Part shown: in pieces, positions 6,232 to 62,804 of the stretch
Layout: the number at the start of each line of letters is the position of its first letter
Position numbering within the stretch: the first letter of the stretch is position 1
From: Yoonia sp.
GTDB lineage: Bacteria > Pseudomonadota > Alphaproteobacteria > Rhodobacterales > Rhodobacteraceae
Direction: 5' to 3'
DNA length: 64,000 nucleotides
NCBI RefSeq assembly: GCF_042093035.1
Contig: NZ_JBELFI010000001.1
Location: 13,814-77,813, forward strand
The notes under the pieces: generated by a model
What the model saw: only the letters and a program-made list of their open reading frames with translations
Told to the model about the DNA's origin: nothing
The model's database searches: none
Translations under genes and position numbers: made by a program

Positions 6232-6270
6232 TATGCCGGCGGAGGGGATGAAAAACAGGTCACGGCGCTC

Positions 6271-7281: not shown

Positions 7282-8981
7282 GTTTGGGCATTGTCATGCT
7301 GGTGCATACCGCCTTTGACCGCGCCGAACAAATGGTGCGTGTCTGGGATGCCGCCGGTTGCCCCGTCGTGATCCATGTGGACAGCGAGGTCGGCCAGGAG
7401 ACCCATGATGCCTTCAAACATGCTTTGGCGGATCTTGCCAACGTGCGCTTTTGTGCGCGCAACCGCTGTGAATGGGGGACATGGGGCCTTGTTGCGGCTT
7501 CGCAAACGGCGGCGACAATGCTGCTTGAAGACTTCCCCGACGTTTCGCATGTCTATCTTGCATCGGGGGCTTGCCTGCCGCTGCGCCCCGTGGATGAGCT
7601 GATCGCGTTTCTGATCGATCATCCCGACACCGATTTTATCGAAAGCGCGACAACCGCCGATGTGCCTTGGACTGTTAGCGGGCTGGACCGGGAACGCTTC
7701 ACGCTGCGCTTTCCCTTCGCCTGGAAGAAGCGCCGCAAGCTGTTTGACAGCGCCGTCAAGCTGCAACAAATGTTAGGTTATACGCGGAAAACTCCGGACG
7801 GGCTGGTGCCGCATATGGGGTCGCAATGGTGGTGTCTGACGCGGCAAACGCTCGATGCGATTTTGCAGGATCCCAACAGGCCGGCCTACGACCATTATTT
7901 CCGGCAGGTCTGGATTCCTGACGAAAGCTATTATCAAAGCCTTGTCCGGATACATGCCCGCCGGGTGGAGAGCCGGTCCCTGACCTTGGCGAAGTTCGAT
8001 TTTCAGGGCAAGCCACATATCTTTTTTGATGACCATATGCAGTTATTGCGCCGGTCTGACTGTTTTGTTGCTCGCAAGATTTGGAAGGATGCAGAGCTGC
8101 TTTACCGCAGTTTTCCACGAAAGAATGACCCTGATTGCGCGAAGGCGGCGCCGAATACCGGGACGGTTGACCGGCTCTTTTCGCAGGCTGCGATGCGCCG
8201 CACTCTGGGTCGGCCGGGGCTATATATGCAAAGCCGGTTCCCCAGTATCGACCGGGAAAACGGCGTTGCGGCAGCGCGTTATACTGTGTTGCAGGGCTTT
8301 GATGATGTGTTTGAGCAGTTCCAGAATTGGCTGGCCCGGCGCACCGGGGCACAGGTGCATGGCCATCTCTATGCCAAGGACCGCGCGCATTTTGCCGGTG
8401 ATGGCAAGATCTACAAAGGCGGGTTGTCCGACCATCCGCGGTTGCGGGATTATAATGCCACGATGTTCCTGACCAATCTGGTCTGGAACGGGCGCGAGGA
8501 CTATCATTGCTTCCAATTCGGCCCCGCCGACAGCCAGGACATCCGCTGGACCATCGCGCGCGATACCAATGCCAGCATCTGGGTGATTTCGGGTGCTTGG
8601 GCGATCCCGCTTTTCAGGTCCGGTCGTGCCGCAAGCGACGTGCGGGCCGAAGCTGCGCGGTTGCAGCGGATTGAAAATGCATTCCTCAAGACGTTGCGCG
8701 GACCAAATGCGCATGCGCGCATCTCGATCATGTCATTGGCCGAATTCATTCAGGCGCCGACAGATGCCTTGCAAACGATCATCGACGATATTGCTGGCCA
8801 CAGGGGCAAGGCGGTGTCAGAGCCGCCCAAGATGGCGGATTTGGACGGTTTGGCCGATTTCCTGCAGGACTTGCGTAACCAGGGTATGCACCCGTTCCTG
8901 ACCGGCGATATCACCCAAGGTGATGCGCGGCAGGCCAAGCGCGATGCGCCGCCGAAGCCTTATATCGTGGCGCGGAAATGA
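7278..8981 (+). CDS. GT14 (core-2/I-branching 'Branch'-type) glycosyltransferase-like N-terminal domain, fused to a ~290 aa C-terminal domain of unknown function
   Basis: The N-terminal half has ...VIHVDSE..., ...CEWGTWGLVAA..., YLASGACLPLRP, GSQWWCLTRQTLDAI and WIPDESYYQSLV, which match the Branch-family pattern. I do not recognise any motif in the C-terminal half. Confidence 0.55.
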   Translation: MSLGIVMLVHTAFDRAEQMVRVWDAAGCPVVIHVDSEVGQETHDAFKHALADLANVRFCARNRCEWGTWGLVAASQTAATMLLEDFPDVSHVYLASGACLPLRPVDELIAFLIDHPDTDFIESATTADVPWTVSGLDRERFTLRFPFAWKKRRKLFDSAVKLQQMLGYTRKTPDGLVPHMGSQWWCLTRQTLDAILQDPNRPAYDHYFRQVWIPDESYYQSLVRIHARRVESRSLTLAKFDFQGKPHIFFDDHMQLLRRSDCFVARKIWKDAELLYRSFPRKNDPDCAKAAPNTGTVDRLFSQAAMRRTLGRPGLYMQSRFPSIDRENGVAAARYTVLQGFDDVFEQFQNWLARRTGAQVHGHLYAKDRAHFAGDGKIYKGGLSDHPRLRDYNATMFLTNLVWNGREDYHCFQFGPADSQDIRWTIARDTNASIWVISGAWAIPLFRSGRAASDVRAEAARLQRIENAFLKTLRGPNAHARISIMSLAEFIQAPTDALQTIIDDIAGHRGKAVSEPPKMADLDGLADFLQDLRNQGMHPFLTGDITQGDARQAKRDAPPKPYIVARK

Positions 8982-10411
8982 AGCCTTTTGACTATTTCAT
9001 CATACTGGCGGGTATGCGCACAGGCTCTAACCTGCTTGAAGTCAACCTGAACGCGCTTGCAGGTGTCAGTTGCCATGGCGAGGCGTTCAACCCTTCTTTT
9101 GTGGGCGGTCCCAAGACGGACATGCTGTTGGGAGTTGATCTGGCAACGCGTGAAAACGACCCCACGGCGCTGCTTGAAAAGATCAAACAGAGCGATACTC
9201 TCGCCGGGTTTCGTTTCTTTCACGATCACGATCCGCGTATTCTCGACATCTGCTTGAACGACCGGCGCTGCGCCAAGATCATCCTGAGCCGCAATCCCGT
9301 CGATAGTTTTGTCAGCTGGAAAATCGCGCAGGCAACGGGGCAATGGAAGCTGACCAACGCGACAAAGACGAAGTCGCAGGTTGTCACCTTTGATGGGAAC
9401 GCATTCCGCGATCACGTTGACGCGCTCGGAGAGTTCCATTCAAAGCTGCGCCACAGACTGCAAACCACGGGGCAAGCGGTGTTTCATCTGCGGTATGATG
9501 ATTTGCGCGATGTGGATGTTCTCAATGGGCTCGCCGCTTATCTGGGTACCGACGCGCGGCTGTCCAACGTTGATAAGAAACTCAAGAAGCAGAACCCCGA
9601 ACCATTGCAGGACAGGGTCGCAAACTACGATGAGATGCGGCAGGCGCTGCATGAGATTGACCCCTTCAATCTCGACCATCTGCCGCAATTTGAACCGATG
9701 CGTGGGCCGGCAATCCCGACCTATGTTGCCGCACCGCAGTCGGCGCTGATGTACATGCCGCTCAGGTCTGGTCCTGATCGGGCTGTGATGGCGTGGTTGG
9801 CTGAATTGGACGGGATGGCGGTGGAAGAGCTGCTCACCCAGTTCTCACAGAGAACATTGCGAGCATGGCAAAGCCTGCACGGGCCGCATCGGCGCTTTGC
9901 TGTTGTCAGGCATCCACTGGCGCGTGCGCATGTGGCCTATTGTGATCGGATCGTCGGGCAAGGTGCGGCGCAATTGCCGGAGATCAGGGCGAACCTGCGC
10001 CGTGTACATGATCTGCGCATTCCCGCTGACGGGACCGATTTCACAGGGCGGGACGGCTATGACGTGGCCGCGCACGCGCAAGGATTTGCGGGTTTCCTCA
10101 GGTTCCTGCGCCATAATTTGGCGGGGCAGACCAGCATTCGCGTTGATCCATCATGGGCCAGTCAGAACGTCTTGTTGCAAGGCATGGCGCAGGTCGCCGC
10201 GCCTGATGCGGTTCTTCGCGAAGATGCATTGGCAACAGGATTGCCACATCTGGCGGCGCAAATCGGAATAACGGATTGTCCGGTTTGGACGGGCGGCGCG
10301 CACAAAAGGCAAACATGGTTGCGCGAAATCTATTCGCCGGAACTTGAGCGTGCAGCGCGTGACGCCTACGCGCAGGACTACCGTGTGTTCGGGTTCGAAA
10401 ACTGGACCTAG
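8978..10411 (+). CDS. Two-domain sulfotransferase-like protein (NodH/Stf0-like N-domain plus Sulfotransfer_2-like C-domain)
   Basis: The N-domain has FIILAGMRTGSNLLE, which resembles a PAPS 5'-phosphosulfate-binding loop. The C-domain has FAVVRHPLARAHVAYCDRI and a C-terminal ..AYAQDYRVFGFENW, typical of bacterial family-2 sulfotransferases. Its start overlaps the upstream stop (ATGA). Confidence 0.55.
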   Translation: MKPFDYFIILAGMRTGSNLLEVNLNALAGVSCHGEAFNPSFVGGPKTDMLLGVDLATRENDPTALLEKIKQSDTLAGFRFFHDHDPRILDICLNDRRCAKIILSRNPVDSFVSWKIAQATGQWKLTNATKTKSQVVTFDGNAFRDHVDALGEFHSKLRHRLQTTGQAVFHLRYDDLRDVDVLNGLAAYLGTDARLSNVDKKLKKQNPEPLQDRVANYDEMRQALHEIDPFNLDHLPQFEPMRGPAIPTYVAAPQSALMYMPLRSGPDRAVMAWLAELDGMAVEELLTQFSQRTLRAWQSLHGPHRRFAVVRHPLARAHVAYCDRIVGQGAAQLPEIRANLRRVHDLRIPADGTDFTGRDGYDVAAHAQGFAGFLRFLRHNLAGQTSIRVDPSWASQNVLLQGMAQVAAPDAVLREDALATGLPHLAAQIGITDCPVWTGGAHKRQTWLREIYSPELERAARDAYAQDYRVFGFENWT

Positions 10412-50058: not shown

Positions 50059-51354
50059 TTACAAATCTGCAAAGTTCAGCATAACGCGCAGACCCTGCGG
50101 CTTTTGTCCCGGCTGCATTGGGCCAAGATCAAGTTTTGCCCCATGCCGATCCGCGACAGCGCGCACCAAGGCAAGCCCCAACCCGGAGCCGATGCTGGAC
50201 CGCGCCGCATCGAGCCGCACCATCGGTTTGACGATCTCGTCATAGTCCGCAGTCTTAACGCCGTCGCCATTATCGGCAACGCCAAGCGATTGCCCATTGG
50301 CGATCAACGCGATCTCTGATCCGCCATGCACCAAGGCGTTCTGGATCAGATTTGCCATCGCCTGCACAAGCATCTGCCTATCCGCGAACACTGATTTGGC
50401 CCCCGACACATCCAGCTTGAGCTGCCTTCCTGCGTCCTCCACGACGGGGCCGAATGTTTCGGCCAACGCGTCGATGAATGACGCCAGCGGGATGTCCTCA
50501 AAGCCGGTTTTGCCTTGACCCGCCTCGATCCGGGCGACCCGCATGATGGTATCGAAAATATCTGAAAGCTGCCCTGCCTCTTCCAATGCCTCGGCGCGCT
50601 CTTCGCTATCTGGCAACATCTCCAGCCGCGCCCTCAATCGGGCGAGTGGGGTCCGTAGATCATGTGCGATACTGGCACCAAGATGTCGGGTTTGGGCAAC
50701 AATCCGTTCCAGTTCAGACGCGGTGCGGTCCAGTTGCCGCGCGATATCATCAAGATCATCCTTGGAGCGTCCAAGTCCCGTGCGCGCCGTCAAATCGCCT
50801 GCTGCCAACTGCCCCAATGTGGTGTTGATTCCGCTCAGCCTGCGCTGGGCAAAAAACCCTGCTCCCACGCCAATCGCGATGGTAGATCCAATCACAAGTG
50901 CCGCAGTGGTCCACAAGATACCTGACAGAAGCTCCAGCGCGTCTTCGCTTTCTTCCAGTGGCACAGCGACTATCACTGGTGTTCCGCGACTGTCTTGGGT
51001 TACCAGAATGCGCCAGACTTCGGAGCGCAGGAAATTGCCATCAAGCTCGACTGTTCGGCGGCGTTCCTGAACGGCGCGACGAAACGGGCGGGGCAGGTCT
51101 TCGAGGTCATCCAGTGGTCGCAGTATAAGTGACGGGCTTTGCCCTTCTGCGTCTTCCAAGATCGCGGATCTCGCGAAGGCTTCAAGTGTGGTATCGGCGC
51201 GCTGGGCGATTGCATCTCTGCCAAGCGACAAAGCCACAAAAAGCGCAACGGCCATCCCGACCGCAAAGATTGCCGAAAGCAGCAGCGACAGGCGCAGCAT
51301 GGAAGAGCGCCGCAGCCACGCAAATTTGCGGATCAGGTTACTGACCAAAAACAT
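50059..51354 (-). CDS. Sensor histidine kinase (OmpR-partner type)
   Basis: Two transmembrane helices, HAMP, an H-box GASIAHDLRTPLARL and an HATPase GSGLGLALV. ATG at 51354 overlaps the 3' end of the response-regulator gene. Confidence 0.8.
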   Translation of the reverse strand: MFLVSNLIRKFAWLRRSSMLRLSLLLSAIFAVGMAVALFVALSLGRDAIAQRADTTLEAFARSAILEDAEGQSPSLILRPLDDLEDLPRPFRRAVQERRRTVELDGNFLRSEVWRILVTQDSRGTPVIVAVPLEESEDALELLSGILWTTAALVIGSTIAIGVGAGFFAQRRLSGINTTLGQLAAGDLTARTGLGRSKDDLDDIARQLDRTASELERIVAQTRHLGASIAHDLRTPLARLRARLEMLPDSEERAEALEEAGQLSDIFDTIMRVARIEAGQGKTGFEDIPLASFIDALAETFGPVVEDAGRQLKLDVSGAKSVFADRQMLVQAMANLIQNALVHGGSEIALIANGQSLGVADNGDGVKTADYDEIVKPMVRLDAARSSIGSGLGLALVRAVADRHGAKLDLGPMQPGQKPQGLRVMLNFADL

Positions 51355-52021
51355 ACCCCTCGCCGCGTCGGGTGCGTAGCAAGGCCGTATCAAACGGCTT
51401 GTCGATCTTGGATCGCAACCGGCTGATATGCGTTTCAACCACACTCGTGGTTGGATCGAAGCTCATGTCCCAGACCTGCTCCAGCAGCATGGTTCGGGTA
51501 ACAAGGCGGCCGGGGCGGCGCATGAAATACTCCAACAGTTTGAATTCCTTGGCCATCAGGTCAATCGGCGTACCTTGCCGTTTGCAGCGGCGCGCCAGCA
51601 GATCAAGCGTCAGGTCGCCGTATCGCAATGTCGTTTGTGCAGCTTCGGTCAAGGCGCCCGGATCGCGCCGCCTGCTCAATGCCTGAACACGCGCCGAAAG
51701 CTCGGCAAAGGCAAATGGCTTTGTCAGATAGTCATCCCCTCCGGCCTCAAACCCTTCGACACGGGCATCAACTTCGCCAAGTGCCGTCAGAAAAAGGGCA
51801 GGTGTCGTGTCTTTTGAGGCGCGCAGGGATTTCAACACGGCGAGCCCGTCAAGACGAGGCACCATCCGATCCAGGATGAGCAGATCGTAATCCTGACCCA
51901 TCGCTGCCATCAACGCATCTTTGCCATCTGCGAAGTGGTCAACAACATGCCCTTCCTCACGCAGCCCACCGGCGACCCAAGGGCCAAGATGTGCATCGTC
52001 TTCTAGGAGCAGAATGCGCAT
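51338..52021 (-). CDS. OmpR-family response regulator
   Basis: MRILLLEDD...DLLILDRMVPRLDG receiver domain plus a winged-helix C-terminus. Confidence 0.9.
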   Translation of the reverse strand: MRILLLEDDAHLGPWVAGGLREEGHVVDHFADGKDALMAAMGQDYDLLILDRMVPRLDGLAVLKSLRASKDTTPALFLTALGEVDARVEGFEAGGDDYLTKPFAFAELSARVQALSRRRDPGALTEAAQTTLRYGDLTLDLLARRCKRQGTPIDLMAKEFKLLEYFMRRPGRLVTRTMLLEQVWDMSFDPTTSVVETHISRLRSKIDKPFDTALLRTRRGEGYVFGQ

Positions 52022-52113
52022 GGAAACCTCAATTTGTCACGGCAGGTGGAAAGAGGCTGCCGGGAACGGCAACCTCTGTGCTTTTGGGAAAGCTCTGCAA
52101 GGGGCGCTTGGGA

Positions 52114-52440
52114 TCAAGCGTCGTTGTCGTCATCCTTTTCGCATCCTTCGTCGCCGTCTGCGGACACCTTCAGAACATCGCCTGTCTCTGCGTTGATCTC
52201 AACCTCCATCTCGGTGCCATCCTCTGCAATGATCTCGACTTCGTAGATCTGTTTGCCGTGCTCGCGTTCCAGTTCAACTTCATTGACTTCGCCGGGCACT
52301 TCAAGCAGCGCAATCGCGATGACCTGTTCTTCGCTCAGGCCGGTTTGCGCAGCCGCTGTCTGCGCAGAGACCGCGCTGGCAATACCACCGGCCAGAACCA
52401 GGCCAGCCAATGCGCCGCCAGTCAGAATTTTCTTATCCAT
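52114..52440 (-). CDS. PepSY-domain periplasmic protein
   Basis: Signal peptide followed by a PepSY-like core (..EEQVIAIALLEVPGEV.EVELERE.GKQIYEVEI...G.E.EVEINAETGDVLK) and an acidic tail. Confidence 0.7.
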   Translation of the reverse strand: MDKKILTGGALAGLVLAGGIASAVSAQTAAAQTGLSEEQVIAIALLEVPGEVNEVELEREHGKQIYEVEIIAEDGTEMEVEINAETGDVLKVSADGDEGCEKDDDNDA

Positions 52441-52547: not shown

Positions 52548-52647
52548 ATTGGCCACCCTGAGATTATCTGCCGATTGATACAGCTCCGCTATGGCTTCGG
52601 CAGAGGAAAATTGGCACTTTCCCGCATCAAGTAGAAGGATTCGGCAG

Positions 52648-53352
52648 ATGGTCGATCTGTGGGATGGTCTGACCCAAGCGTTTTGGCTTGTGGTGACCTT
52701 GGACGCGGAACTGGCAGAGATCGCGTTGCGCTCGCTTTATGTCACGCTCACAGCGCTTGTGATTGCTTGCGTGGTCGCTTTTCCGTTGGCCGCACTTCTT
52801 GCCGTGCGCAGGTTCCGGTTTCGCCGGTTTGTCATTGCGGTTCTGAATGCCTTGATGGGGTTGCCGCCGGTTGTTGTTGGCCTGATCGTATATGTCCTGC
52901 TGTCGCGGTCCGGCCCGTTCGGGGTGCTGGGTCTTCTGTTCACGCCGACTGCCATGATTATCGCGCAGGTCATTATCATCGTCCCGTTGATTGCCAGCAT
53001 CGCGCATCAGTCCCTGCGTGATCTTTGGCAGGAATATCACGACCTTCTCATTTCGATGAATGTGACCCAGAGCCAAAAAATGCGAACGCTGATCTGGGAT
53101 GCGCGCAGGGCGCTTCTGACAGCAGCACTGGCCGGCTTCGGGCGCGGGATCGGCGAGGTGGGCGCGATCATGATTGTCGGTGGCAACATAGACAACGTGA
53201 CGCGCGTGCTGACCACAGCGATTGCGCTGGAAACCGGCAAGGGGGCGTTTGCGCTCGCTCTGGCGCTTGGCTTTGTGCTGATTGCCCTGACGATCGCGGT
53301 GAACCTTATGACCCATTGGCTCAGCCAGACGGAACGTGAGGGGCGATGGTGA
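52648..53352 (+). CDS. ABC transporter permease (TupB/sulfate-molybdate-type)
   Basis: About 234 aa with 5-6 helices and an EAA-like loop. GAAGGA RBS before the ATG at 52648. Confidence 0.7.
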   Translation: MVDLWDGLTQAFWLVVTLDAELAEIALRSLYVTLTALVIACVVAFPLAALLAVRRFRFRRFVIAVLNALMGLPPVVVGLIVYVLLSRSGPFGVLGLLFTPTAMIIAQVIIIVPLIASIAHQSLRDLWQEYHDLLISMNVTQSQKMRTLIWDARRALLTAALAGFGRGIGEVGAIMIVGGNIDNVTRVLTTAIALETGKGAFALALALGFVLIALTIAVNLMTHWLSQTEREGRW

Positions 53353-54062
53353 TGAGCTTGTTCCCCCTCAAAGTCACTGGCGCAGAGACCCGCCGTCGCG
53401 GCAAGGTGATTGTCGGACCGGTTTTCCTTGATCTTAATGGTGATGGCACCACGGTGATTGTTGGCCCGAACGGATCCGGCAAGACGACGCTTCTGCGTCT
53501 GCTTCACGGGACCGCACGATTGAACGCTGGGACGATTGACTGGCATCAACCTATTGAGACGGTGCGTGAGGCGCAGTCTTTCGTGTTCCAGCGTCCGGTC
53601 ATGCTGCGCCGCAGTGTCATCGAAAACATAGCCTACCCGCAGCTCATCCGCGGCGTCACAAAGCCGAAGGCATTGGCATTGGCCCGCACTTGGGCCGCGC
53701 ATGTCGGCCTGGGCGACATGCTCAAACGCGCCGCGACGAGCCTTTCGGGGGGGGAGCAACAAAAGCTGGCCCTTGCGCGTGCGTTCATCACCGATCCGCA
53801 GGTCGTGTTTCTGGACGAACCCTGCGCCTCACTTGACGGGCGCGCAACGGCTGAGATCGAGGCAATTTTGCGGGATCAAAAGGCACGCGGCACACGGTTT
53901 ATCATGTCTACCCACGACATGGGGCAGGCGCGCCGATTGGCAGATGCGGTTGTTTTTCTACGCGGCGGTCAAGTCCATGAGACGGCCCCAGCGCCCGGTT
54001 TCTTTGATGCCCCCCAGACTGACGCAGCACGCGCCTTTCTGAACGGAGATATCGTGGAATGA
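53346..54062 (+). CDS. ABC transporter ATP-binding protein (TupC-like)
   Basis: Walker A GPNGSGKTT, signature LSGGEQQKLALAR, Walker B VVFLDEP. Confidence 0.8.
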   Translation: MVMSLFPLKVTGAETRRRGKVIVGPVFLDLNGDGTTVIVGPNGSGKTTLLRLLHGTARLNAGTIDWHQPIETVREAQSFVFQRPVMLRRSVIENIAYPQLIRGVTKPKALALARTWAAHVGLGDMLKRAATSLSGGEQQKLALARAFITDPQVVFLDEPCASLDGRATAEIEAILRDQKARGTRFIMSTHDMGQARRLADAVVFLRGGQVHETAPAPGFFDAPQTDAARAFLNGDIVE

Positions 54063-54862
54063 AGCGGCTTTTGTTCATCGCGGCCCTGATCGGCGCCACA
54101 TCCGCATCGGCGCAGGACAGCATGCGCATGGCGGTCACGACGTCTTTTCACAACTCCGGCCTTGCCGATGTTCTCTTGCCGGAAATTCAGACCGATTTGG
54201 GGCTTGAGGTTCAATTGTTGATCGTCGGTACCGGGCAAGCCTTGCGTTTGGGTGAGGCGGGCGACGTGGATGCGATCCTTGTCCATTCCCGCACGGCAGA
54301 GGAAGCTTTCGTCGCCGCAGGCCACGGCACGCATCGGCGCGAGATAATGTATAGTGATTTTGTCCTGATCGGCCCGTCCGATGACCCCGCTGATGTAGGA
54401 TCTGCAATCGATGCCGCCACTGGTTTGCAACGCATTGCCACCTCTGGTGCCCAGTTTGTCAGCCGTGGTGATGACAGTGGTACGCACAAAAAGGAACTGC
54501 GCCTTTGGTCTGATGCGGGCCTCAATGTTGAGGGGTTTGGCGACGGGTATCTTTCCGTCGGTGCAGGCATGGGGGCTGCCCTGAACACCGCGTCGGGCAT
54601 GAATGCCTACATCCTGTCAGACCGTGCCAGTTGGCTGAATTTCGCGAACAAAGGGGATCTGGCACTGCTTTTCTCGGGCGATCCGGCGCTTTTCAATCAA
54701 TATGCCTTTCTTCCGGTGAACCCCGAATTGCACCCCTATGTGAAGGCCGAACAGGCGCGCCAGCTTGAGGAATGGTTGACCTCTGCGCGCGCCGCAAAGC
54801 TGATAAATGATTTCACCATCGGCGATGAAAACCCCTTCGTCTTTAATGCTGAAGCAAGGTAG
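54059..54862 (+). CDS. Tungstate/molybdate-type periplasmic binding protein (TupA-like)
   Basis: Signal peptide followed by MAVTTSFHNSGL, which resembles the TupA TT(T)S anion-binding motif. Confidence 0.6.
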   Translation: MKRLLFIAALIGATSASAQDSMRMAVTTSFHNSGLADVLLPEIQTDLGLEVQLLIVGTGQALRLGEAGDVDAILVHSRTAEEAFVAAGHGTHRREIMYSDFVLIGPSDDPADVGSAIDAATGLQRIATSGAQFVSRGDDSGTHKKELRLWSDAGLNVEGFGDGYLSVGAGMGAALNTASGMNAYILSDRASWLNFANKGDLALLFSGDPALFNQYAFLPVNPELHPYVKAEQARQLEEWLTSARAAKLINDFTIGDENPFVFNAEAR

Positions 54863-54894: not shown

Positions 54895-56778
54895 TCAGAA
54901 GATCACATTCAACACCACAAGAGAGACCACCAAGAACAGGACCGTCATGATGCCGCCGCTCTTGACGAAGTCGATCACCTTATAGCCGGCCGGACCCATA
55001 ATCAGCGCATTCACCTGATGGGTGGGGATCAAGAAGGAATTCGACGTTGATATCGCAACCGTCAGCGCAAAGACCGCCGGATCGCCGCCAGCCGCAACCG
55101 CAATGGAAATCGCAAGCGGCACAAGCAGAACAGTCGCGCCGACGTTGGACATGATGAGCGTGAATACGGTCGCCAAGATAGCCATGCCGGCCTGAAGCGA
55201 CCAAATGGGCCAGCCATCAAGCAAAACAAGCACCTGTTGCGCAATCCATGCTGCCGTCCCCGACGTTTGCACTGCCTGACCAAGCGGTATCAGGCTGGCC
55301 AGCAAAAAGACCGTACTCCAGCTGACGGCTTCATAGGCGTCATCAATATCAAGAACACCCGTCAGGATCATGCCGACCGCGCCGGTCAGCAGCGCCAGCG
55401 ACAGACGCAGGTCAGTGAACAGGATCAAAAAGATGGACACAAAAAAGAAAAACAGCGCCCAGCCGACCTTTTTGGGGCGCAATTCCTCTTGTGGGAAGTC
55501 GGTTGTTACGACGACGAAATCCCTGTCGCGGGTCAGTCGCGTCAGCGCGTCCCATGTACTGAGAATGACAAGCGTATCGCCCGCGCGGAATGGTACTTCG
55601 CCGATTTGGGTTGGCTCGTGATCCTCGGTCGCAACGAGGCTGAGCGTTTCTTCACCTCGGTGAATGGCCAGCATGCTCGCGCCATAGGTTTTGCGAAACA
55701 CCACGTCATGCGCGCATTTGCCGATCAGCGATGAGCCGGGCGGGATGACCACCTCTGCCACACCCGAACGGGTGGGTGCATAGTCTTCGGCAAAGACGTC
55801 GAGCTTGTCATGAAGAACGAAACCCTCAGCCTTGACCATTTGCACGACTTCTTTACGTCTGCCAAGGATGGCAAGACGACAAGGTGCCGTGATCTCGGTC
55901 TGAATAACTGGCGCGAACCATGTCTTGCCCTGATATGCGCTGCCGATGATGTAGACATGGTAATGCTTGATAAGGTCATCGAAGGTATTCCCGACGCAGA
56001 GGCTTCCTTCGGGCACAGAGATTTCAAAGATATCCGTTTTGAGGCCGTACAGCTCTTTGAGGTAGGATTTCATCGACCGGCCACTGGTTGCGTCACCGCC
56101 CTTTTGCGCGCCCGGCAATATCCAGCGTCCGAAAATCATGAAGTAGAGAATGCCCGTCGCGATCAGTGCAAGCCCAATAGGTGTCACCGAAAACAGGCCG
56201 AATGGTGTCATTTGCCGGTCTGCGGGCAACGATTGGTTAGCCGTCAGGATCAGATCATTCAGCAGGATCAGCGGCGATGACCCAACCATCGTCATCGTGC
56301 CGCCCAAAATCGCGCAGAAACCCATTGGCATCAGCAAGCGGCTGAGCGACAGGCCCGTGCGCACCGAAATCCGGCTCACTACCGGCAGGAACAACGCCGC
56401 AGCGCCGACGTTTTGCATGAACGATGAAATGATCCCGACCGTGCCAGAGATGATGGGCACAACCCGCGCTTCGGTGTTGCCGCCATATCTCAGGATCAGT
56501 GCGGCAACCTTGCCCATAAGTCCGGTCTTATCCAGACCCGCCCCGATAATCATCACCGCGATAATCGACACCACCGCATTCGACGCCAATCCGTTAAAGA
56601 GCTGACTGATATTCGCAAGCGATCCAAGACCCGGAAGCTGACTGAGCAACCCCAGCAGAACCATCACAAGGATGGCTGCAAAGTCGATCCGCACCACCTC
56701 CGAAACAAAGAGAACGACCGTAAAGGCCAGCAGTCCCAAAACCACCGACATCTCGAATGTTAGGGTGATCGCATCCAC
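54895..56778 (-). CDS. SLC13/DASS-family permease with central TrkA-C domains
   Basis: 627 aa. Hydrophobic N- and C-terminal halves are separated by a ~200 aa soluble insert, as in bacterial SLC13 permeases. GTG start. Confidence 0.8.
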   Translation of the reverse strand: MDAITLTFEMSVVLGLLAFTVVLFVSEVVRIDFAAILVMVLLGLLSQLPGLGSLANISQLFNGLASNAVVSIIAVMIIGAGLDKTGLMGKVAALILRYGGNTEARVVPIISGTVGIISSFMQNVGAAALFLPVVSRISVRTGLSLSRLLMPMGFCAILGGTMTMVGSSPLILLNDLILTANQSLPADRQMTPFGLFSVTPIGLALIATGILYFMIFGRWILPGAQKGGDATSGRSMKSYLKELYGLKTDIFEISVPEGSLCVGNTFDDLIKHYHVYIIGSAYQGKTWFAPVIQTEITAPCRLAILGRRKEVVQMVKAEGFVLHDKLDVFAEDYAPTRSGVAEVVIPPGSSLIGKCAHDVVFRKTYGASMLAIHRGEETLSLVATEDHEPTQIGEVPFRAGDTLVILSTWDALTRLTRDRDFVVVTTDFPQEELRPKKVGWALFFFFVSIFLILFTDLRLSLALLTGAVGMILTGVLDIDDAYEAVSWSTVFLLASLIPLGQAVQTSGTAAWIAQQVLVLLDGWPIWSLQAGMAILATVFTLIMSNVGATVLLVPLAISIAVAAGGDPAVFALTVAISTSNSFLIPTHQVNALIMGPAGYKVIDFVKSGGIMTVLFLVVSLVVLNVIF

Positions 56779-56870: not shown

Positions 56871-57335
56871 CTAGATTGCCAGATCAAGCCGTGGCTTCCA
56901 GAACGGCCGGAACAGCTCAATCTTGGGGCAACGGTCCATGACGACTTTCAATCCGGCGTCCTCTGCCAGTTTGGCAGCGGCTTCATCATAAACGCCAATC
57001 TGACCCCAAAGCACCTTTGCGCCGATCGCAATCGCTTGTTTGGTGATATCATAGAGTTCTTCTTTCGGCCGAAAGACCTCAACCATATCCACAGGGCGGT
57101 CAATGTCCTGCAGTGAGCGATAGACCTTGATCCCGCGGATTTCTGTGACATTCGGGTTTGGATTGACCGGGATCATGTCATAGCCGGTTTCATGCAACAC
57201 CCGCAGAACCCCGTAGCTGAACTTGGTTTTATCGGCACTTGCACCGACCATTGCGATGGTTTTGACAGACCGCAAAATGCCGGACAGGTAATCCTGCGTA
57301 TAGTCGTAACGACGATCAACATCAGCTTCGGGCAT
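56871..57335 (-). CDS. CoA-binding domain protein (YccU/YneT-like)
   Basis: Matches the CoA_binding_2 pattern: KTIAMVGASADKTKFSYGV...GYDMIPVNP...VDMVEVFRP...GAKVLWGQIG. Confidence 0.8.
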   Translation of the reverse strand: MPEADVDRRYDYTQDYLSGILRSVKTIAMVGASADKTKFSYGVLRVLHETGYDMIPVNPNPNVTEIRGIKVYRSLQDIDRPVDMVEVFRPKEELYDITKQAIAIGAKVLWGQIGVYDEAAAKLAEDAGLKVVMDRCPKIELFRPFWKPRLDLAI

Positions 57336-57704
57336 TCAGCTCTCCTTTGGGGTTGCGATATCCGCTTTCAGCTCGTGGCTTTGCAGCGGATCAAGGAAGG
57401 GGTTGCGGTACAGGGTGTCGTGGCTTTCGACACCGATATCGAGGGTGCAATCGGTCACGGGCCGGGCCACGCAAAGCAGCACATAGCCGTTCGCGATTTG
57501 CCGATTGTTCAGCGCCACCTGCCGCCGTTGGTCAACTTCGCCGCGCGTTAGCTTGGCCGCACAGGTGATACAGCCCCCGTATTTGCAGCCGTAAGGCAGA
57601 TCGACGCCCTGTTCGCGCAACGTATCCAGCAAGGGACGCCGTGCATCGACTTCAAGCGTTTGGCAGTCGCGATTGCCGATGGTGATGGACCGTGTGCCGG
57701 TCAC
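57336..57704 (-). CDS. Plant-type [2Fe-2S] ferredoxin
   Basis: C-x4-C-x2-C...C motif (YGCKYGGCITCAAKL...LLCVARP). GTG at 57704 overlaps the SBP56 stop as GTGA. The ORF track's TTG at 57725 is less likely. Confidence 0.8.
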   Translation of the reverse strand: MTGTRSITIGNRDCQTLEVDARRPLLDTLREQGVDLPYGCKYGGCITCAAKLTRGEVDQRRQVALNNRQIANGYVLLCVARPVTDCTLDIGVESHDTLYRNPFLDPLQSHELKADIATPKES

Positions 57705-59056
57705 AGCCAGATGTCGCTTGTGCAATCGCCACCGGGGTAGCGGGTTTCGTGGCAGCGACTGGGGCCGTTGGGTTCTTTGCCGAAATCAACCACGAAGTCT
57801 TCGTTGATCTTCATGCCGCCGTTTTCCACATCGCAGTCGACCATCAACATCACCCCGCCTTGGGTGCGGATGTCGGGGTAGAACTGGTTGTCCCATGTCG
57901 AAAACAGCGACGTCGTCACATAAAGGCGCTTGCCGTCCAGCGACAGTTGGAACATCTGCGGGCCGCCCGCGACTTTGACGCCATTCACCTCTGGCGCTTT
58001 GCCCAGAAGCCCACCCATCCAGACCTGCCCGGTCAGCTTCGGGTTATGCGGGTCGGATATGTCGTACTGGCGCATGTCCCCATGCAGCCAGTTGTTGAGA
58101 TAGAGATACTTGTCATCCATCGACACAAGGATCGCCGACATCACACCGGGCACTGGTATGGGCCATTCCGGATGCGGTTCATTGGGGACGTCGATGACCT
58201 TTTCCCATTCCCATTTGCCCGCATCGCTTTTCCAGAAATGGATGACATTGGTCGAAAGTGCAGCGCCGCAAAAACCGTGCGTGCTGTCTGGGTCATGCAG
58301 GAACTTCACCTCAAGCGGGATCAGACCGTCTTCACCCAGATACATGGTCTCGACAGGTTCACGTTTCTGGAAATCCCAGATGTGGAGTCTACGCCCGTAT
58401 TTCAGATAGCCCACCTCTTCGAGGTCAAAGCCCGGCATGAAGGTATTGGGTGCCGCCCATTCGGAGCTGACCATCACGTTGTGGCGGGGCTGGTACCAGA
58501 AGTCATAGCCGAAGGGGATGTCCCCCATGGAGTTTTCCCAACGGCCCATGATCTCGAAGTCTTGGTCCAGATGCAGATAGCCGCCCGGCGCTTCGCCCTT
58601 GGCGTCGCCAAGAAATGAGATGATGATCTCTGATCCCAGGCAATGGACCGTATGCGGGCCGGACAGGTCTGTCTTCGATTTGATCTCGGCGCCATCAATG
58701 ATCTTGTGCAAACGCGGCGCACGCGGGTCGGTCGCGGTATCGACGATATGAATGTTGTTGGAGCGCACACCGGGCACCAGCAGGTATTTGCGCGACATAG
58801 AGCTGTCATCGTTGCACGACGAACAGGCATTCCAACCCATATGGTGCAATTCATCGCCGATGCCGGGCATTTCAAGCCGGTGAATGACCTGACTATAGGT
58901 CGGGCTATCTGGGTCGGCGTCTACTGTTGCAAGGTAATCCGGCTTCTGGATGCCCGTGCCTGTGTAGATCGCAATCGTATACAGAAGCTTCTCTCGTGGC
59001 GCTTTGATTGCCTCAGCGGGGCTAGCGTAGCCCGGTCCGCAGCATACTCCATCCAT
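57701..59056 (-). CDS. Selenium-binding protein 56 family protein (methanethiol oxidase family), cytoplasmic form
   Basis: MDGVCCGPGYASPAEAIKAPREKLLYTIAIY...IGDELHHMGWNACSSC closely resembles the SELENBP1 N-terminus. AAGGAGG RBS. No signal peptide. The upstream ORF-track extension is unsupported. Confidence 0.9.
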   Translation of the reverse strand: MDGVCCGPGYASPAEAIKAPREKLLYTIAIYTGTGIQKPDYLATVDADPDSPTYSQVIHRLEMPGIGDELHHMGWNACSSCNDDSSMSRKYLLVPGVRSNNIHIVDTATDPRAPRLHKIIDGAEIKSKTDLSGPHTVHCLGSEIIISFLGDAKGEAPGGYLHLDQDFEIMGRWENSMGDIPFGYDFWYQPRHNVMVSSEWAAPNTFMPGFDLEEVGYLKYGRRLHIWDFQKREPVETMYLGEDGLIPLEVKFLHDPDSTHGFCGAALSTNVIHFWKSDAGKWEWEKVIDVPNEPHPEWPIPVPGVMSAILVSMDDKYLYLNNWLHGDMRQYDISDPHNPKLTGQVWMGGLLGKAPEVNGVKVAGGPQMFQLSLDGKRLYVTTSLFSTWDNQFYPDIRTQGGVMLMVDCDVENGGMKINEDFVVDFGKEPNGPSRCHETRYPGGDCTSDIWL

Positions 59057-59090
59057 GATTGACGCTCCTCCTTGATTCCCTGTTGTTTCC

Positions 59091-59121
59091 CGTATATCGA
59101 AAAGATAGTTATCAAGATACG
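59091..59121. promoter_or_regulatory. Cluster of TATC/GATA inverted repeats (cgTATATCgaaaaGATAgtTATCaaGATAcg); candidate IclR operator
   Basis: Read directly in the 70 bp divergent region between the SBP56 operon and the iclR-family gene. Confidence 0.3.
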
Positions 59122-59126
59122 AGAAA

Positions 59127-59891
59127 ATGATGCACCTCGAACGTTTAGCAGTGGTTCTGGAAATCGCAGGGCAAAAGGGTGAGGCCACGGTCGCAGACAT
59201 TTGTGCCCATTCCGACTTACCGAAGCCAACGGCGTACCGTTTGGTGCATGATCTGGTGAGTGTTGGCCTGCTAGAGCCCGTCGCAAGAGGCCGCTTTTCC
59301 ATTGGCATGCGCCTCAAACAGATCACGCAGGCGGATCAGTCGGACGCTGCCTTGATCGCGCTTGTCGGCCCGACGCTGCGGCAAGCCGCCACCAAACATG
59401 GTGCGGCGTTCTTTCTGTCACGGCTGCGCGGCCGCAACGTAGAGATTATTCAAGTTGAAACCCCCGACACTGGTGTGTCCTTCCTGCACCCGGGGCTGGG
59501 AAAACGCCCCCTGCACGCTTGTTCGTGCTCAAAGGCAGTCGCGGCATTTTCGCCCGATCTGATTGCGGGGCAAGGTCTCGAAGGGCGTCTGAAAGCCTAT
59601 ACGGAGTTCACCCTGACACGCGTCGCTGATCTGGAGCTTGAGCTTGAGGCGATCAGGCGGCGTGGCTACGCCGAATGCGTGGAAGAAATTGAACGCGGCA
59701 TGTGCTCTGTTGCGACGACATTGGGGCGTGAAGGGCCGGGGGCGAGCATGTCGATTGGGGCGACCGGGTCAACGCGGGTCTTTACCGACGCCTATCGTGC
59801 AGAGATTGGGCGCGTGATCTCCGATATGGCGCGCACGCTTTCGTCTGAAATGAAATGGGACACGCCAGCGCGCGCCCCGCAATCAGCTTAA
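59127..59891 (+). CDS. IclR-family transcriptional regulator
   Basis: N-terminal wHTH (..ATVADICAHSDLPKPTAYRLVHDLVSVGLLE) plus a C-terminal IclR effector domain; 254 aa. Confidence 0.85.
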   Translation: MMHLERLAVVLEIAGQKGEATVADICAHSDLPKPTAYRLVHDLVSVGLLEPVARGRFSIGMRLKQITQADQSDAALIALVGPTLRQAATKHGAAFFLSRLRGRNVEIIQVETPDTGVSFLHPGLGKRPLHACSCSKAVAAFSPDLIAGQGLEGRLKAYTEFTLTRVADLELELEAIRRRGYAECVEEIERGMCSVATTLGREGPGASMSIGATGSTRVFTDAYRAEIGRVISDMARTLSSEMKWDTPARAPQSA

Positions 59892-59897
59892 GATGTC

Positions 59898-61052
59898 TCA
59901 AGCGACCTTTGGAGTTGATGGAAGCTCTTTCTTGGGATCGAAAAACGGGCGATCGACGATTTCGGCCGACGTTGTTTGACCGTCAAGATCCACGTCAACA
60001 TATTCGCCAAGCACCGCATGTTCCGCCGAAATCAAGGCAAGTGCGATGTTTTGCTGAAGCCTTGGTGAGTAAACGGCCGAGGTCACTTTCCCGATGCGTT
60101 CGCCGTCTTTGCCGACATCCCAAAACACAGTATTCGGTCCGGTCAAAGGCGCACCGCCGATAATCAAGCCAATTTGCTTGCGGCTGACGCCTGTCTCCTT
60201 GATCCGCGCGAGGGCCTCTTTGCCGACAAATTTCGCATCGGTATCAAGGTTTACCAGACGGCCCAGACCAAGCTCATAGGGGTTTGTCCCGGCATCCATA
60301 TCGGCGTGATAGGACAACATGCCAGCTTCAACCCGGCGGATGGATGATGTGTGACCGGGTTGCAGACCATATGGCGCACCCGCTGCCATGATCTTTTCCC
60401 AAAGCACATCGCCAAGGTTTCCGTCGCGCAGGTAGAGCTCATAGCCAAGTTCACTGGACCAACCGGTCCGCGAAACGACCAGCGGAATACCGTCCAGTTC
60501 TACTTCACGCAGCCAAAAATAACGCAGGTCGAGAATGTCATCGCCAAAAAGGGCCTGCATTATCATGCCAGAGTTCGGCCCCTGCAATTGCAACGGAGAA
60601 ACATCAGGTTCGCGAATTGTCACATCCAGTCCGGAATACACCGCCAGCCCCTGCGCCCAGAGCAGAATGTCGCTGTCAGCAAGCGACAGCCAGAAATGGT
60701 TCTCGGCAAGGCGCAACACGATCGGGTCGTTCAGGATGCCGCCATCTGCATTTGTAATCAGAACGTATTTGCATTGCCCGACAGCCATCTTCGACAGATC
60801 ACGCGGGGTCAGCATTTGCGTGAATATGGCGGCGTCAGGGCCGGTAATTTCCACCTGGCGCTCGACCGCGACGTCGCACAGGATCGCCGTGTTCACAAGG
60901 TTCCAGAAATTCTGTACCGGATCGCCAAAGTCACGCGGGATATACATGTGGTTGTAGACAGAAAAACCCTGCGCGCCCCAGCGCACAGTTGCGTCGAAGT
61001 AGGGTGACTTGCGGATCTGAGTGCCGAAGCCAAAATTCTTTGCGGTCATCAT
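59898..61052 (-). CDS. GcvT-family aminomethyltransferase, DmdA-like (substrate unknown)
   Basis: IRKSPYFDATV..GFSVYNHMYIPRDF...CDVAVERQVEITGPDA parallels the DmdA/GcvT N-terminal pattern; 384 aa; GGGGAGGA RBS. Confidence 0.8.
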   Translation of the reverse strand: MMTAKNFGFGTQIRKSPYFDATVRWGAQGFSVYNHMYIPRDFGDPVQNFWNLVNTAILCDVAVERQVEITGPDAAIFTQMLTPRDLSKMAVGQCKYVLITNADGGILNDPIVLRLAENHFWLSLADSDILLWAQGLAVYSGLDVTIREPDVSPLQLQGPNSGMIMQALFGDDILDLRYFWLREVELDGIPLVVSRTGWSSELGYELYLRDGNLGDVLWEKIMAAGAPYGLQPGHTSSIRRVEAGMLSYHADMDAGTNPYELGLGRLVNLDTDAKFVGKEALARIKETGVSRKQIGLIIGGAPLTGPNTVFWDVGKDGERIGKVTSAVYSPRLQQNIALALISAEHAVLGEYVDVDLDGQTTSAEIVDRPFFDPKKELPSTPKVA

Positions 61053-61517: not shown

Positions 61518-62804
61518 ATGACTTTTAAAATTCCTGCTCTTGCAGTGACCGCCCTGCTGGGCACCACCGTAATGGCTGCCGCCGCTTCCGACTGCGTTGA
61601 TCCGATCAAAGTGGGCGTTCTGCACTCGCTTTCCGGCACCATGGCGATTTCCGAGACAACATTGAAAGACACAATGGAGCTGCTGATCGAAAATCAGAAT
61701 GCTGCCGGTGGTCTGTTGGGCTGTGAAATCGAAGCTGTGGTTGTTGATCCGGCCTCCGACTGGCCGCTTTTCGCCGAAAAAGCACGTGAGCTGCTGACCG
61801 TCAGCGAAGTTGACGTGATCTTTGGCAGCTGGACATCAGTGAGCCGCAAATCGGCTTTGCCTGTCTTGGAAGAACTCAACGGTCTGATGTTTTACCCGGT
61901 GCAATATGAGGGTGAGGAAAGCTCCAGAAATGTGTTCTACACCGGGGCCGCGCCAAACCAGCAGGCTATTCCGGCCACAGATTACTTTCTTGAAGAGCTC
62001 GGCGTTGAGAAATTCGCGTTGCTTGGCACTGACTATGTTTATCCGCGCACGACCAACAACATCCTTGAAGCGTACCTGATCGACAAGGGCATCGCGCCTG
62101 AGGACATCTTTGTGAACTATACGCCGTTTGGACAGTCAGACTGGGCGACAATTGTGGCCGATGTCGTCGCACTCGGTGCGGATGGCAAGCAGGTTGGCGT
62201 GATTTCGACCATCAACGGTGATGCGAACATCGGTTTCTACAAAGAGCTTGCCGCTGCCGGCATCTCTGCGGATGATATTCCGGTTGTCGCTTTCTCCGTG
62301 GGTGAGGAAGAGCTTTCGGGCCTCGATACATCTAACCTTGTGGGCCACCTGGCTGCCTGGAACTACTTTCAATCCGCTGAATCGGAGTTGAACGACGAAT
62401 GGGTCGCAGCCTGGAAAGCCAAAATGGGCGAAGATCGTGTCACCAACGACCCGATGGAAGCGCACTATATTGGCTTTAACATGTGGGTGAATGCCGTGAC
62501 AGACGCTGGCACGACAGATGTTGATGCCGTGCGTGAGGCGATGTACGGGCAGGAATTCCCGAACTTGACGGGTGGCACGGCGGTCATGTTGCCAAACAAC
62601 CACCTCGCCAAGCCTGTTCTGATCGGTGAGATCACAGCCGACGGCCAGTTCGACATCATCAGCCAGACCACGGAAGTGCCGGGCGATGCATGGACGGACT
62701 ACCTACCGGAATCTGCGGCTCTCGTGTCTGATTGGCAGACCTTGGGTTGCGGCATGTACAACACCGAAACCGAGACCTGCGTTCAGCTGACCTCAAACTA
62801 CTAA
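61518..62804 (+). CDS. urtA: Urea ABC transporter substrate-binding protein UrtA
   Basis: Signal peptide followed by PIKVGVLHSLSGTMAISETTLKD..., typical of UrtA; 428 aa. Followed by urtB. Confidence 0.9.
   Translation: MTFKIPALAVTALLGTTVMAAAASDCVDPIKVGVLHSLSGTMAISETTLKDTMELLIENQNAAGGLLGCEIEAVVVDPASDWPLFAEKARELLTVSEVDVIFGSWTSVSRKSALPVLEELNGLMFYPVQYEGEESSRNVFYTGAAPNQQAIPATDYFLEELGVEKFALLGTDYVYPRTTNNILEAYLIDKGIAPEDIFVNYTPFGQSDWATIVADVVALGADGKQVGVISTINGDANIGFYKELAAAGISADDIPVVAFSVGEEELSGLDTSNLVGHLAAWNYFQSAESELNDEWVAAWKAKMGEDRVTNDPMEAHYIGFNMWVNAVTDAGTTDVDAVREAMYGQEFPNLTGGTAVMLPNNHLAKPVLIGEITADGQFDIISQTTEVPGDAWTDYLPESAALVSDWQTLGCGMYNTETETCVQLTSNY

Follow-up and report, generated by a model that had tools for sequence, protein, structure and literature searches.

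In the marine turnover of dimethylsulfoniopropionate (DMSP), methanethiol is a central intermediate, and its oxidation decides whether sulfur and carbon are retained or lost as gas. Methanethiol oxidase (MTO) activity has been established for four orthologs of the SBP56 (selenium-binding protein) family, ranging from bacteria to humans. MtoX, for which a native rate of 16 umol/min/mg has been reported, is encoded in Ruegeria pomeroyi by an operon that is induced ~14-fold by methanethiol, and also by methylmercaptopropionate (MMPA) and DMSP. Cytoplasmic-type enzymes have been purified as well, namely RdMTO from Roseobacter denitrificans and RlMTO from Ruegeria lacuscaerulensis, and these are active without ferredoxin when copper-loaded. 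RdMTO, which is 53% identical to human SELENBP1, was described as a strictly copper-dependent MTO that makes H2S, H2O2 and formaldehyde (HCHO; September 2026 paper). The products are disputed: Cao et al. reported sulfane sulfur, bound as Cys-S-S-CH3 or Cys-SSH, and detected no H2O2, whereas a later study found H2S, not S0, as the product of copper-loaded RdMTO. Here, we analyse a 64,000-nucleotide stretch of DNA from Yoonia sp. (Rhodobacteraceae; contig NZ_JBELFI010000001.1, positions 13,814 to 77,813), hereafter the window, in which an SBP56 gene (sbp56) is followed by genes for a plant-type [2Fe-2S] ferredoxin (fdx) and a CoA-binding protein (coaB). With a probability of roughly 60%, we consider these genes to form a methanethiol-oxidising operon, sbp56-fdx-coaB, in which the ferredoxin serves the copper site of SBP56.

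All three genes lie on the minus strand. The sbp56 gene (57701-59056) encodes 451 amino acids that match PF05694 over its full length (E 1e-207), fdx (57336-57704) has a GTG start and encodes a 122 amino acid plant-type [2Fe-2S] ferredoxin (Fer2, E 1e-15), and the coaB-like gene (56871-57335) encodes a single-domain CoA_binding_2 protein of 154 amino acids (PF13380, E 5e-38). The TGA stop of sbp56 (57701-57703) and the GTG start of fdx (57702-57704) overlap by 4 nt, forming the sequence GTGA, and the fdx stop is directly joined to the coaB ATG (TGAATG). The same overlapping fdx start is annotated by RefSeq in Phaeobacter inhibens. An earlier annotation of this DNA, made from the letters alone (the original prediction), had given this gene order with its overlaps and coordinates, all of which are borne out by the open reading frame (ORF) listing, Pfam and direct reading. 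The sbp56 ATG has an upstream ribosome-binding site (AAGGAGGAG, 59065-59073). A longer, in-frame sbp56 ORF of 541 amino acids, starting from a GTG at 59326 and overlapping the IclR gene on the opposite strand, was rejected as an over-extended artefact because homologs align from the ATG; one homolog, P0001 (604 amino acids), is over-extended likewise. No natural SBP56-ferredoxin fusions were found, as P0001 owes its length to this N-terminal over-extension and P0107 is chimeric. The window is chromosomal, and its host, an uncultured Rhodobacteraceae-like bacterium, is seen in marine metagenomes.

The SBP56 protein matches PF05694 with 690 bits (residues 5-451) and PDB entry 2ECE with E 2e-125. 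It contains the three cysteine motifs by which Cao et al. define the cluster 1 MTOs of Rhodobacteraceae, GWNACS, HTVHC and GGDCT, the cysteines of which correspond to C78, C139 and C445. All six proposed copper ligands are kept (H71/72, H135/138, D185 and E249), matching His75/76, His139/142, Asp189 and Glu253 of RdMTO at a constant offset of 3-4. When ten sequences, MtoX among them, are aligned, residues H71, H72, H135, H436 and W388 are invariant. Judged by eye and from its alignment with MtoX, the N-terminus MDGVCCGPGYASP (MDGVCCGPGY) has no hydrophobic or twin-arginine leader, unlike R. pomeroyi MtoX, which starts with a leader (MKRREFGALAAGALAMGLPFRAFA). Assignment to MtoX itself was considered and rejected, given a score of 157.3 bits against the NF052453 cut-off of 650 and 27.7% identity to R. 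pomeroyi mtoX; neither an MtoX-type export signal nor SCO1/MauG neighbours are present at the window sbp56, whose neighbours are the ferredoxin and CoA-binding genes. Judged by its motifs, ligands and missing leader, the window protein is thus most likely a cytoplasmic SELENBP1-type (cluster 1) copper-dependent methanethiol or short alkyl-thiol oxidase. This agrees with the original prediction of a cytoplasmic, SELENBP1-like protein, and its proposed link to methanethiol gains support from the biochemistry of RdMTO, an ortholog with the same motifs, and from the neighbouring genes. Its statement that only the periplasmic MtoX had been characterised in bacteria does not hold, since the cytoplasmic-type RdMTO and RlMTO had already been purified. 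A separate observation concerns a "methanethiol oxidase" of the sea spider Nymphon striatum (P0067), which is 78% identical to the window SBP56 (82% in the alignment); this protein is N-terminally incomplete, lies on a 1.5-Mb contig, and stems either from contaminating bacterial DNA or from a gene recently transferred into a eukaryotic assembly.

The linkage of sbp56 to fdx is conserved well beyond the Rhodobacteraceae. Relatives were scanned with one genome per GTDB species, and the best 80 of at least 594 loci were analysed by tblastn. In 80 of these 80 closest loci the ferredoxin gene lies directly downstream of SBP56, and in 79 the CoA-binding gene comes next, the sole exception being a contig that ends inside fdx. 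The hosts comprise Rhodobacteraceae, Pelagibacteraceae (SAR11), SAR116/Puniceispirillales, Granulosicoccaceae, Spiribacter, Geminicoccaceae and Acidimicrobiia, and thus at least five major lineages, between which all other flanking genes vary. Because it recurs in every one of these related loci, the arrangement is far beyond chance, and the neighbourhood survey that the original prediction had called for reveals strong co-conservation of the three genes. In a cluster table of 86 entries (loci L001-L085 plus the window), the CoA-binding gene is present in 82. The SBP56 stop and the ferredoxin start overlap in 75 of 82 loci, and pairwise-identity matrices correlate for SBP56 and ferredoxin (r=0.88) as well as for SBP56 and the CoA-binding protein (r=0.74; Mantel p=0.001).

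Further away, the ferredoxin gene still adjoins SBP56 in seven of eight more distant bacterial contexts. Marmoricola, Thioalkalivibrio HK1, Granulosicoccus and a Stappiaceae metagenome-assembled genome (MAG) encode SBP56-Fer2 without the CoA-binding protein, two Chloroflexi loci have IclR followed by SBP56-CoA-binding-Fer2, in which the partner order is swapped and the linkage intact, and one 7.8-Mb bacterial genome has SBP56 without either partner. On haloarchaeal plasmids, where SBP56 is 52-56% identical, ferredoxin lies beside SBP56 in three of five cases (Haloferax, Natronococcus and Haladaptatus, 52-54% identical), with a 4-nt SBP56-ferredoxin overlap in Natronococcus. On a plasmid of Natrinema gelatinilyticum, SBP56 is followed by two short ferredoxin-like fragments in different frames (L095:4335-4467), apparently a decayed fdx. 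The CoA-binding gene falls outside the universal core, being absent in Actinomycetota (Marmoricola), several Gammaproteobacteria and haloarchaea. Since the ferredoxin is kept in distant Bacteria and haloarchaea and the CoA-binding protein is not always, the core consists of SBP56 and ferredoxin, with the CoA-binding protein as a frequent addition. A third SBP56 clade, found in rhizobia, Azospirillum and Phaeobacter piscinae and 37-43% identical to the window protein, has no ferredoxin. Here, SBP56 is followed by a polytopic, histidine-containing membrane protein of 214-222 amino acids without a Pfam family (L089:6393-7037 on P. piscinae pP36_a and L091:5399-6067 on Rhizobium leguminosarum p1, 61% identical between the two genera), which may be a metal-supply partner. 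Each SBP56 clade therefore has its own partner set (SCO1 and MauG, ferredoxin with or without CoA-binding protein, or the membrane protein), which suggests that the partners serve the metal site.

The ferredoxin itself has the ligand motif C-x4-C-x2-C...C, formed by C40, C45, C48 and C77. It scores 79.6 bits against TIGR02008 (fdx_plant), just under the cut-off of 81.15, and its C-terminal extension of ~30 amino acids lies outside that model. In the PDB it is most similar to ferredoxins from cyanobacteria and plants (~1e-21), and the best 120 matches in a protein search are all at least 79% identical. Weak NCBIfam matches include YfaE (33 bits versus a cut-off of 75) and oxygenase reductase modules. 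The CoA-binding protein matches PF13380 with 130.5 bits and is of the YccU/2DUW type (PDB 2DUW, E 4e-33). Two SAR11 subgroups vary this theme: in one (L025:8718-9601 and 13 other loci) the CoA_binding_2 gene is followed in tandem by another that is ~46% identical to it, and in the other subgroup the genes downstream encode a membrane protein and a Flavodoxin_2 protein (NAD(P)H quinone reductase-like) instead.

On its other side, sbp56 is separated by a 70-bp divergent control region (59057-59126, no strand), which includes its ribosome-binding site, from an IclR-family regulator on the plus strand (59127-59891). The regulator passes both the HTH_IclR and IclR_C cut-offs and is 37% identical (E 4e-42) to SPOA0268, which is encoded beside R. 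pomeroyi mtoX. A divergent IclR gene is found in 38 of the 86 cluster-table entries. The 31 orthologous IclR-SBP56 spacers, mostly 66-71 bp long, share a ~30-bp block in which a palindrome is accompanied by a third half-site, for example GAGAAT-N3-ATTCTC plus a third GAGAA. The window copy of this block (59086-59116, TTGATAACTATCTTTTCGATATACGGGAAA) is a candidate IclR operator, a proposal drawn from spacer conservation. Promoter and terminator scans of the window gave no signal exceeding shuffled background.

Expression of the cassette can be followed in RNA contigs. At SAR11 locus L025, the whole unit is covered by contigs that come from four independent ocean metatranscriptomes and together span each of its junctions: enoyl-CoA hydratase (ECH)/SBP56, SBP56/ferredoxin, ferredoxin/CoA-binding and CoA-binding/second CoA-binding (example contigs 6718-7285, 8198-8489, 8657-8928 and 8972-9333). 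The genes at this locus are ECH (6167-6940), SBP56 (7001-8353), ferredoxin (to 8715), CoA-binding (8718-9167) and second CoA-binding (9176-9601). These contigs, which are unstranded and may include DNA carry-over, are consistent with co-transcription. A field study of NAC11-7 roseobacters lists consecutive IMG genes for a CoA-binding protein, a ferredoxin and a selenium-binding protein that change in parallel in situ, with similar expression ratios of 0.42, 0.34 and 0.47, respectively; its authors placed the three genes in three unrelated categories.

Beyond the regulator, and separated from its stop codon by a gap of 6 nt, ends a convergent gene for a GcvT-family, DmdA-like tetrahydrofolate (THF)-dependent methyltransferase (59898-61052, minus strand; GCV_T and GCV_T_C in Pfam), which is probably on a transcript separate from the cassette. 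Its best PDB match is Pelagibacter DmdA (3TFH, 7e-77, 36% identical), and the DMSP/THF-site residues W197, E204 and Y206 of 3TFH are conserved (GWSSELGYELY in the window versus GWSKQGGYEVY). The DMSP-site Trp is insufficient for DmdA identity, because it also occurs in some non-DmdA clades. The protein scores below the DmdA equivalog NF009133 (361.5 versus 410 bits), as do the cassette-linked orthologs at 370-375; given this score and the 36% identity, we call the gene DmdA-like rather than dmdA. The likeness to DmdA in the original prediction therefore stands, in best match and site residues, and the DmdA model does not extend to this protein. GcvT-like orthologs (64-83% identical) adjoin the cassette in 16 of 80 loci. 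The GcvT homologs near SAR11 cassettes were rejected as true dmdA, being 30-32% identical to Pelagibacter DmdA.

The fullest version of this neighbourhood lies on the conjugative plasmid pP30_b of P. inhibens, where an IclR gene is accompanied by eight same-strand genes (L086:6167-14197) in the order SBP56, ferredoxin, CoA-binding, rhodanese, MBL-fold protein, ECH, acyl-CoA synthetase and GcvT-like. The MBL-fold protein, taken to be a persulfide dioxygenase, aligns with one half of the sulfurtransferase/dioxygenase Blh, namely the dioxygenase (3e-106), and the GcvT-like gene, named by RefSeq just a GcvT-domain protein, is 66% identical to that of the window. This eight-gene cluster contains no acyl-CoA dehydrogenase. 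Many loci of roseobacters, SAR116 and Gammaproteobacteria contain subsets of the extra genes. P. inhibens, several roseobacters and one Chloroflexota genome have genes for a rhodanese and a Blh-type sulfur dioxygenase behind the cassette, and in SAR11 the same-strand gene immediately upstream encodes an ECH. By gene content, the pP30_b set parallels methanethiol release by DmdA/DmdB/DmdD followed by sulfane-sulfur handling. The cassette-linked ligase, however, scores under the DmdB cut-off and the methyltransferase under the DmdA cut-off. The cluster looks like a demethylation-type pathway.

Taken together, we propose the following for the window. The region 56871-59056 (minus strand) would be transcribed as a single operon, sbp56-fdx-coaB, in which SBP56 would act as a cytoplasmic, copper-dependent SELENBP1-type methanethiol (short alkyl-thiol) oxidase and the ferredoxin would be made in step with it via the overlapping stop and start codons. 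The ferredoxin would be a one-electron redox partner of the SBP56 copper site, most probably as a donor that either re-reduces or primes Cu(II), or gives two extra electrons that take O2 to water, in which case no H2O2 would be released in the cell's own cytoplasm. The CoA-binding protein would be an accessory of those versions that occur in marine Proteobacteria, Acidimicrobiia and Chloroflexi, and would handle the thiol or sulfane-sulfur side, for example by offering CoA-SH as a sulfur acceptor that yields CoA persulfide. The IclR protein would probably switch the operon on upon methanethiol, via the conserved operator in the 70-bp spacer. As a whole, the unit would clear methanethiol that is freed intracellularly when DMSP-like compounds are broken down by a demethylation-type route. 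We infer the direction of electron flow, the roles of both partners and the inducer. Copper oxygenases require electrons from outside, and plant/cyanobacterial-type ferredoxins are usually near -400 mV, which makes them poor acceptors for methanethiol oxidation. We favour the donor direction because of this ferredoxin type, the aerobic hosts, the external electrons that copper oxygenases need and the cost of cytoplasmic H2O2. A maintenance role, in which the ferredoxin re-reduces an inactivated site, is a close variant of the donor reading. For the CoA-binding protein, its association with rhodanese and persulfide dioxygenase (PDO) genes, together with the report of sulfane sulfur, suggests thiol or persulfide handling; this role is pure inference and the weakest part of our explanation.

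Several points weigh against a ferredoxin serving the copper site, or against the pathway in which we place it. To our knowledge, eukaryotic orthologs have no dedicated ferredoxin. No adjacent ferredoxin gene is found in Rubrobacter, the large bacterial genome P0093 and Natrinema salinisoli, and no ferredoxin reductase gene is co-located with the cassette across the cluster table. Within the window there are no rhodanese, PDO, ECH or ligase genes, and for the window organism itself just five short RNA contigs, from one metatranscriptome, were found. Copper-loaded RdMTO and human SELENBP1 oxidise methanethiol alone and release H2O2, so the ferredoxin is not required for catalysis as such. In R. 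pomeroyi, an mtoX mutant loses >90% of MTO activity despite the presence of more SBP56 paralogs (not necessarily of the window's clade). In favour of a partner, His-tagged RdMTO and RlMTO assayed alone complete ~7-18 turnovers in 30 min (our calculation, with enzyme at 0.3 mg/ml and methanethiol at 44 or 111 uM), compared with 16 umol/min/mg for native MtoX; these few turnovers plausibly fit a missing component, but the low activity in Cao et al. may equally come from missing copper.

Translational coupling and universal linkage would suit any direct redox partnership, including one with the opposite electron flow, as in the original prediction, in which SBP56 would work as a dehydrogenase that hands methanethiol electrons to the ferredoxin instead of, or besides, O2 and so feeds metabolism. 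A plant/cyanobacterial-type ferredoxin (~-400 mV) is by general knowledge a poor acceptor for this, and the carriers seen are all aerobes (SAR11, roseobacters, haloarchaea and Acidimicrobiia). The absence of detectable H2O2 from these enzymes in Cao et al. would fit such a dehydrogenase, whereas the copper-loaded ortholog uses O2 for methanethiol and yields H2O2, and overall we find this option improbable. Another possibility leaves both partners out of the catalytic cycle and has them handle its product: the CoA-binding protein would take up sulfane sulfur as CoA persulfide, and the ferredoxin would reduce the persulfide to sulfide for assimilation or pass it to rhodanese and PDO. We know of no precedent for a plant-type ferredoxin that reduces persulfides, and it is the ferredoxin that is universal, the CoA-binding protein, rhodanese and PDO being facultative, which also speaks against this option. 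The enzyme-bound sulfane sulfur of Cao et al. and the rhodanese and Blh-type sulfur dioxygenase genes behind the cassette in P. inhibens, several roseobacters and one Chloroflexota argue for product handling, and the H2S, rather than S0, that the later study obtained from copper-loaded RdMTO argues against it; we rate it as unlikely.

The substrate could also differ. SBP56 might act on another small thiol or selenol (e.g. methaneselenol), or in redox or selenium handling, with methanethiol activity being incidental. Selenium binding gave the family its first name, and the selenium-linked N-terminal CC and CSSC motifs are conserved; RdMTO reportedly takes other alkyl thiols too, and the adjacent methyltransferase, ligase and hydratase all fall under the DmdA/DmdB cut-offs. 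Against this stand the MTO activity of four orthologs from bacteria to humans, a neighbourhood that resembles the methanethiol-releasing DMSP route, and an IclR protein homologous to the regulator beside a methanethiol-induced operon, which together leave such a substrate little probability. Mere co-travel of the block by horizontal transfer, without functional meaning, would account for the conjugative plasmid in P. inhibens and for the 86-94% identity (best aligned segment) across phyla, with IclR and GcvT-like genes carried along in Acidimicrobiia. Yet the linkage outlasts the swap in gene order, archaeal divergence to 52-56% identity and full turnover of the flanking genes, and overlapping stop and start codons are retained in 75 of 82 loci, so we regard transfer alone as a very improbable explanation.

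Starting again from the ferredoxin as electron donor to the copper site, one can go a step further and speculate that SBP56 and ferredoxin form a two-component copper methanethiol monooxygenase, with the reaction CH3SH + O2 + 2e- + 2H+ -> HCHO + H2S or persulfide + H2O. The H2O2-forming "oxidase" reaction of the isolated enzyme would then be a side reaction that arises from uncoupling, and the sulfur would be channelled by the CoA-binding protein in the form of CoA persulfide. In SAR11, SAR116 and roseobacters, the pair would constitute the true sink for methanethiol. We put this forward as a tentative and rather doubtful extension; if true, it would reconcile the conflicting product reports.

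In the searchable full-text literature, we found no description of a partnership of SBP56 or MTO with a ferredoxin or a CoA-binding protein, and the most relevant MTO papers, including the mBio paper, contain neither "ferredoxin" nor "operon". The enzyme is already known; its partner set, which is nearly universal in prokaryotes, and its wider neighbourhood are undescribed, as the original prediction had supposed for the three-gene arrangement. As the prokaryotic counterpart of human SELENBP1, the system bears on an enzyme whose disputed products (H2S and H2O2 versus sulfane sulfur without H2O2) were all obtained from the enzyme alone. Adding the partners could settle the mechanism and explain how cytoplasmic peroxide is avoided. 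In addition, SBP56 with ferredoxin, with or without the CoA-binding protein, is a better annotation marker for cytoplasmic methanethiol oxidation than SBP56 alone, and points to a demethylation-like gene set (DmdA-like, ligase, hydratase, rhodanese and persulfide dioxygenase).

The remaining surroundings of the cassette are specific to its location. A gene for a CitMHS/DASS-type anion transporter with TrkA_C (54895-56778, minus strand; Pfam) lies 92 bp downstream of the CoA-binding gene on the same strand. This lineage-specific, uncertain member was rejected as part of the operon, as it adjoins the cassette in no other locus; one metatranscriptome contig (window 56707-56906) crosses the 92-bp gap, which hints at read-through. 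An ABC importer (permease, ATPase and PBP_like_2 binding protein; 52591-54862) occupies one flank of the cassette and a urea-type UrtA binding protein (61518-62804; TIGR03407, 526 bits) the other, and a PepSY protein and a response regulator are encoded at 51338-52440.

Finally, the locus can be set beside the known systems that it resembles. Modules of rhodanese and Blh-type persulfide dioxygenase stand directly after the cassette in related loci and not in the window. Compared with DmdA (Pelagibacter 3TFH and R. pomeroyi SPO1913), the window GcvT-like protein has the same fold and the site Trp, Glu and Tyr, but stays under the equivalog cut-off. We know of no copper beta-propeller enzyme that depends on a ferredoxin. 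YfaE of class I ribonucleotide reductase is a small [2Fe-2S] "maintenance" ferredoxin encoded beside its one metalloenzyme; likeness of the window ferredoxin to YfaE-like or oxygenase ferredoxins is an analogy only, with a YfaE score of 33 bits versus 75 and no linked reductase. The mtoX-SCO1/senC-mauG operon of Hyphomicrobium sp. VS and R. pomeroyi (SPOA0268-0272) likewise combines an SBP56-family copper enzyme with an adjoining IclR gene and accessory genes downstream. In contrast to the window SBP56, to which it is 28% identical, MtoX is periplasmic and has a twin-arginine leader; its partners are a copper chaperone and a MauG-like peroxidase instead of a ferredoxin and a CoA-binding protein, and IclR is co-directional there and divergent in the window. 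The closest known counterparts, from the same SBP56 clade, are RdMTO, RlMTO and human SELENBP1. These were studied as isolated recombinant proteins, in papers that name neither the ferredoxin nor the CoA-binding gene, whereas the window protein is known from its sequence. They share with it GWNACS, HTVHC, GGDC(T/S), the N-terminal CCGPGY and the six copper ligands, and none of them carries a signal peptide.

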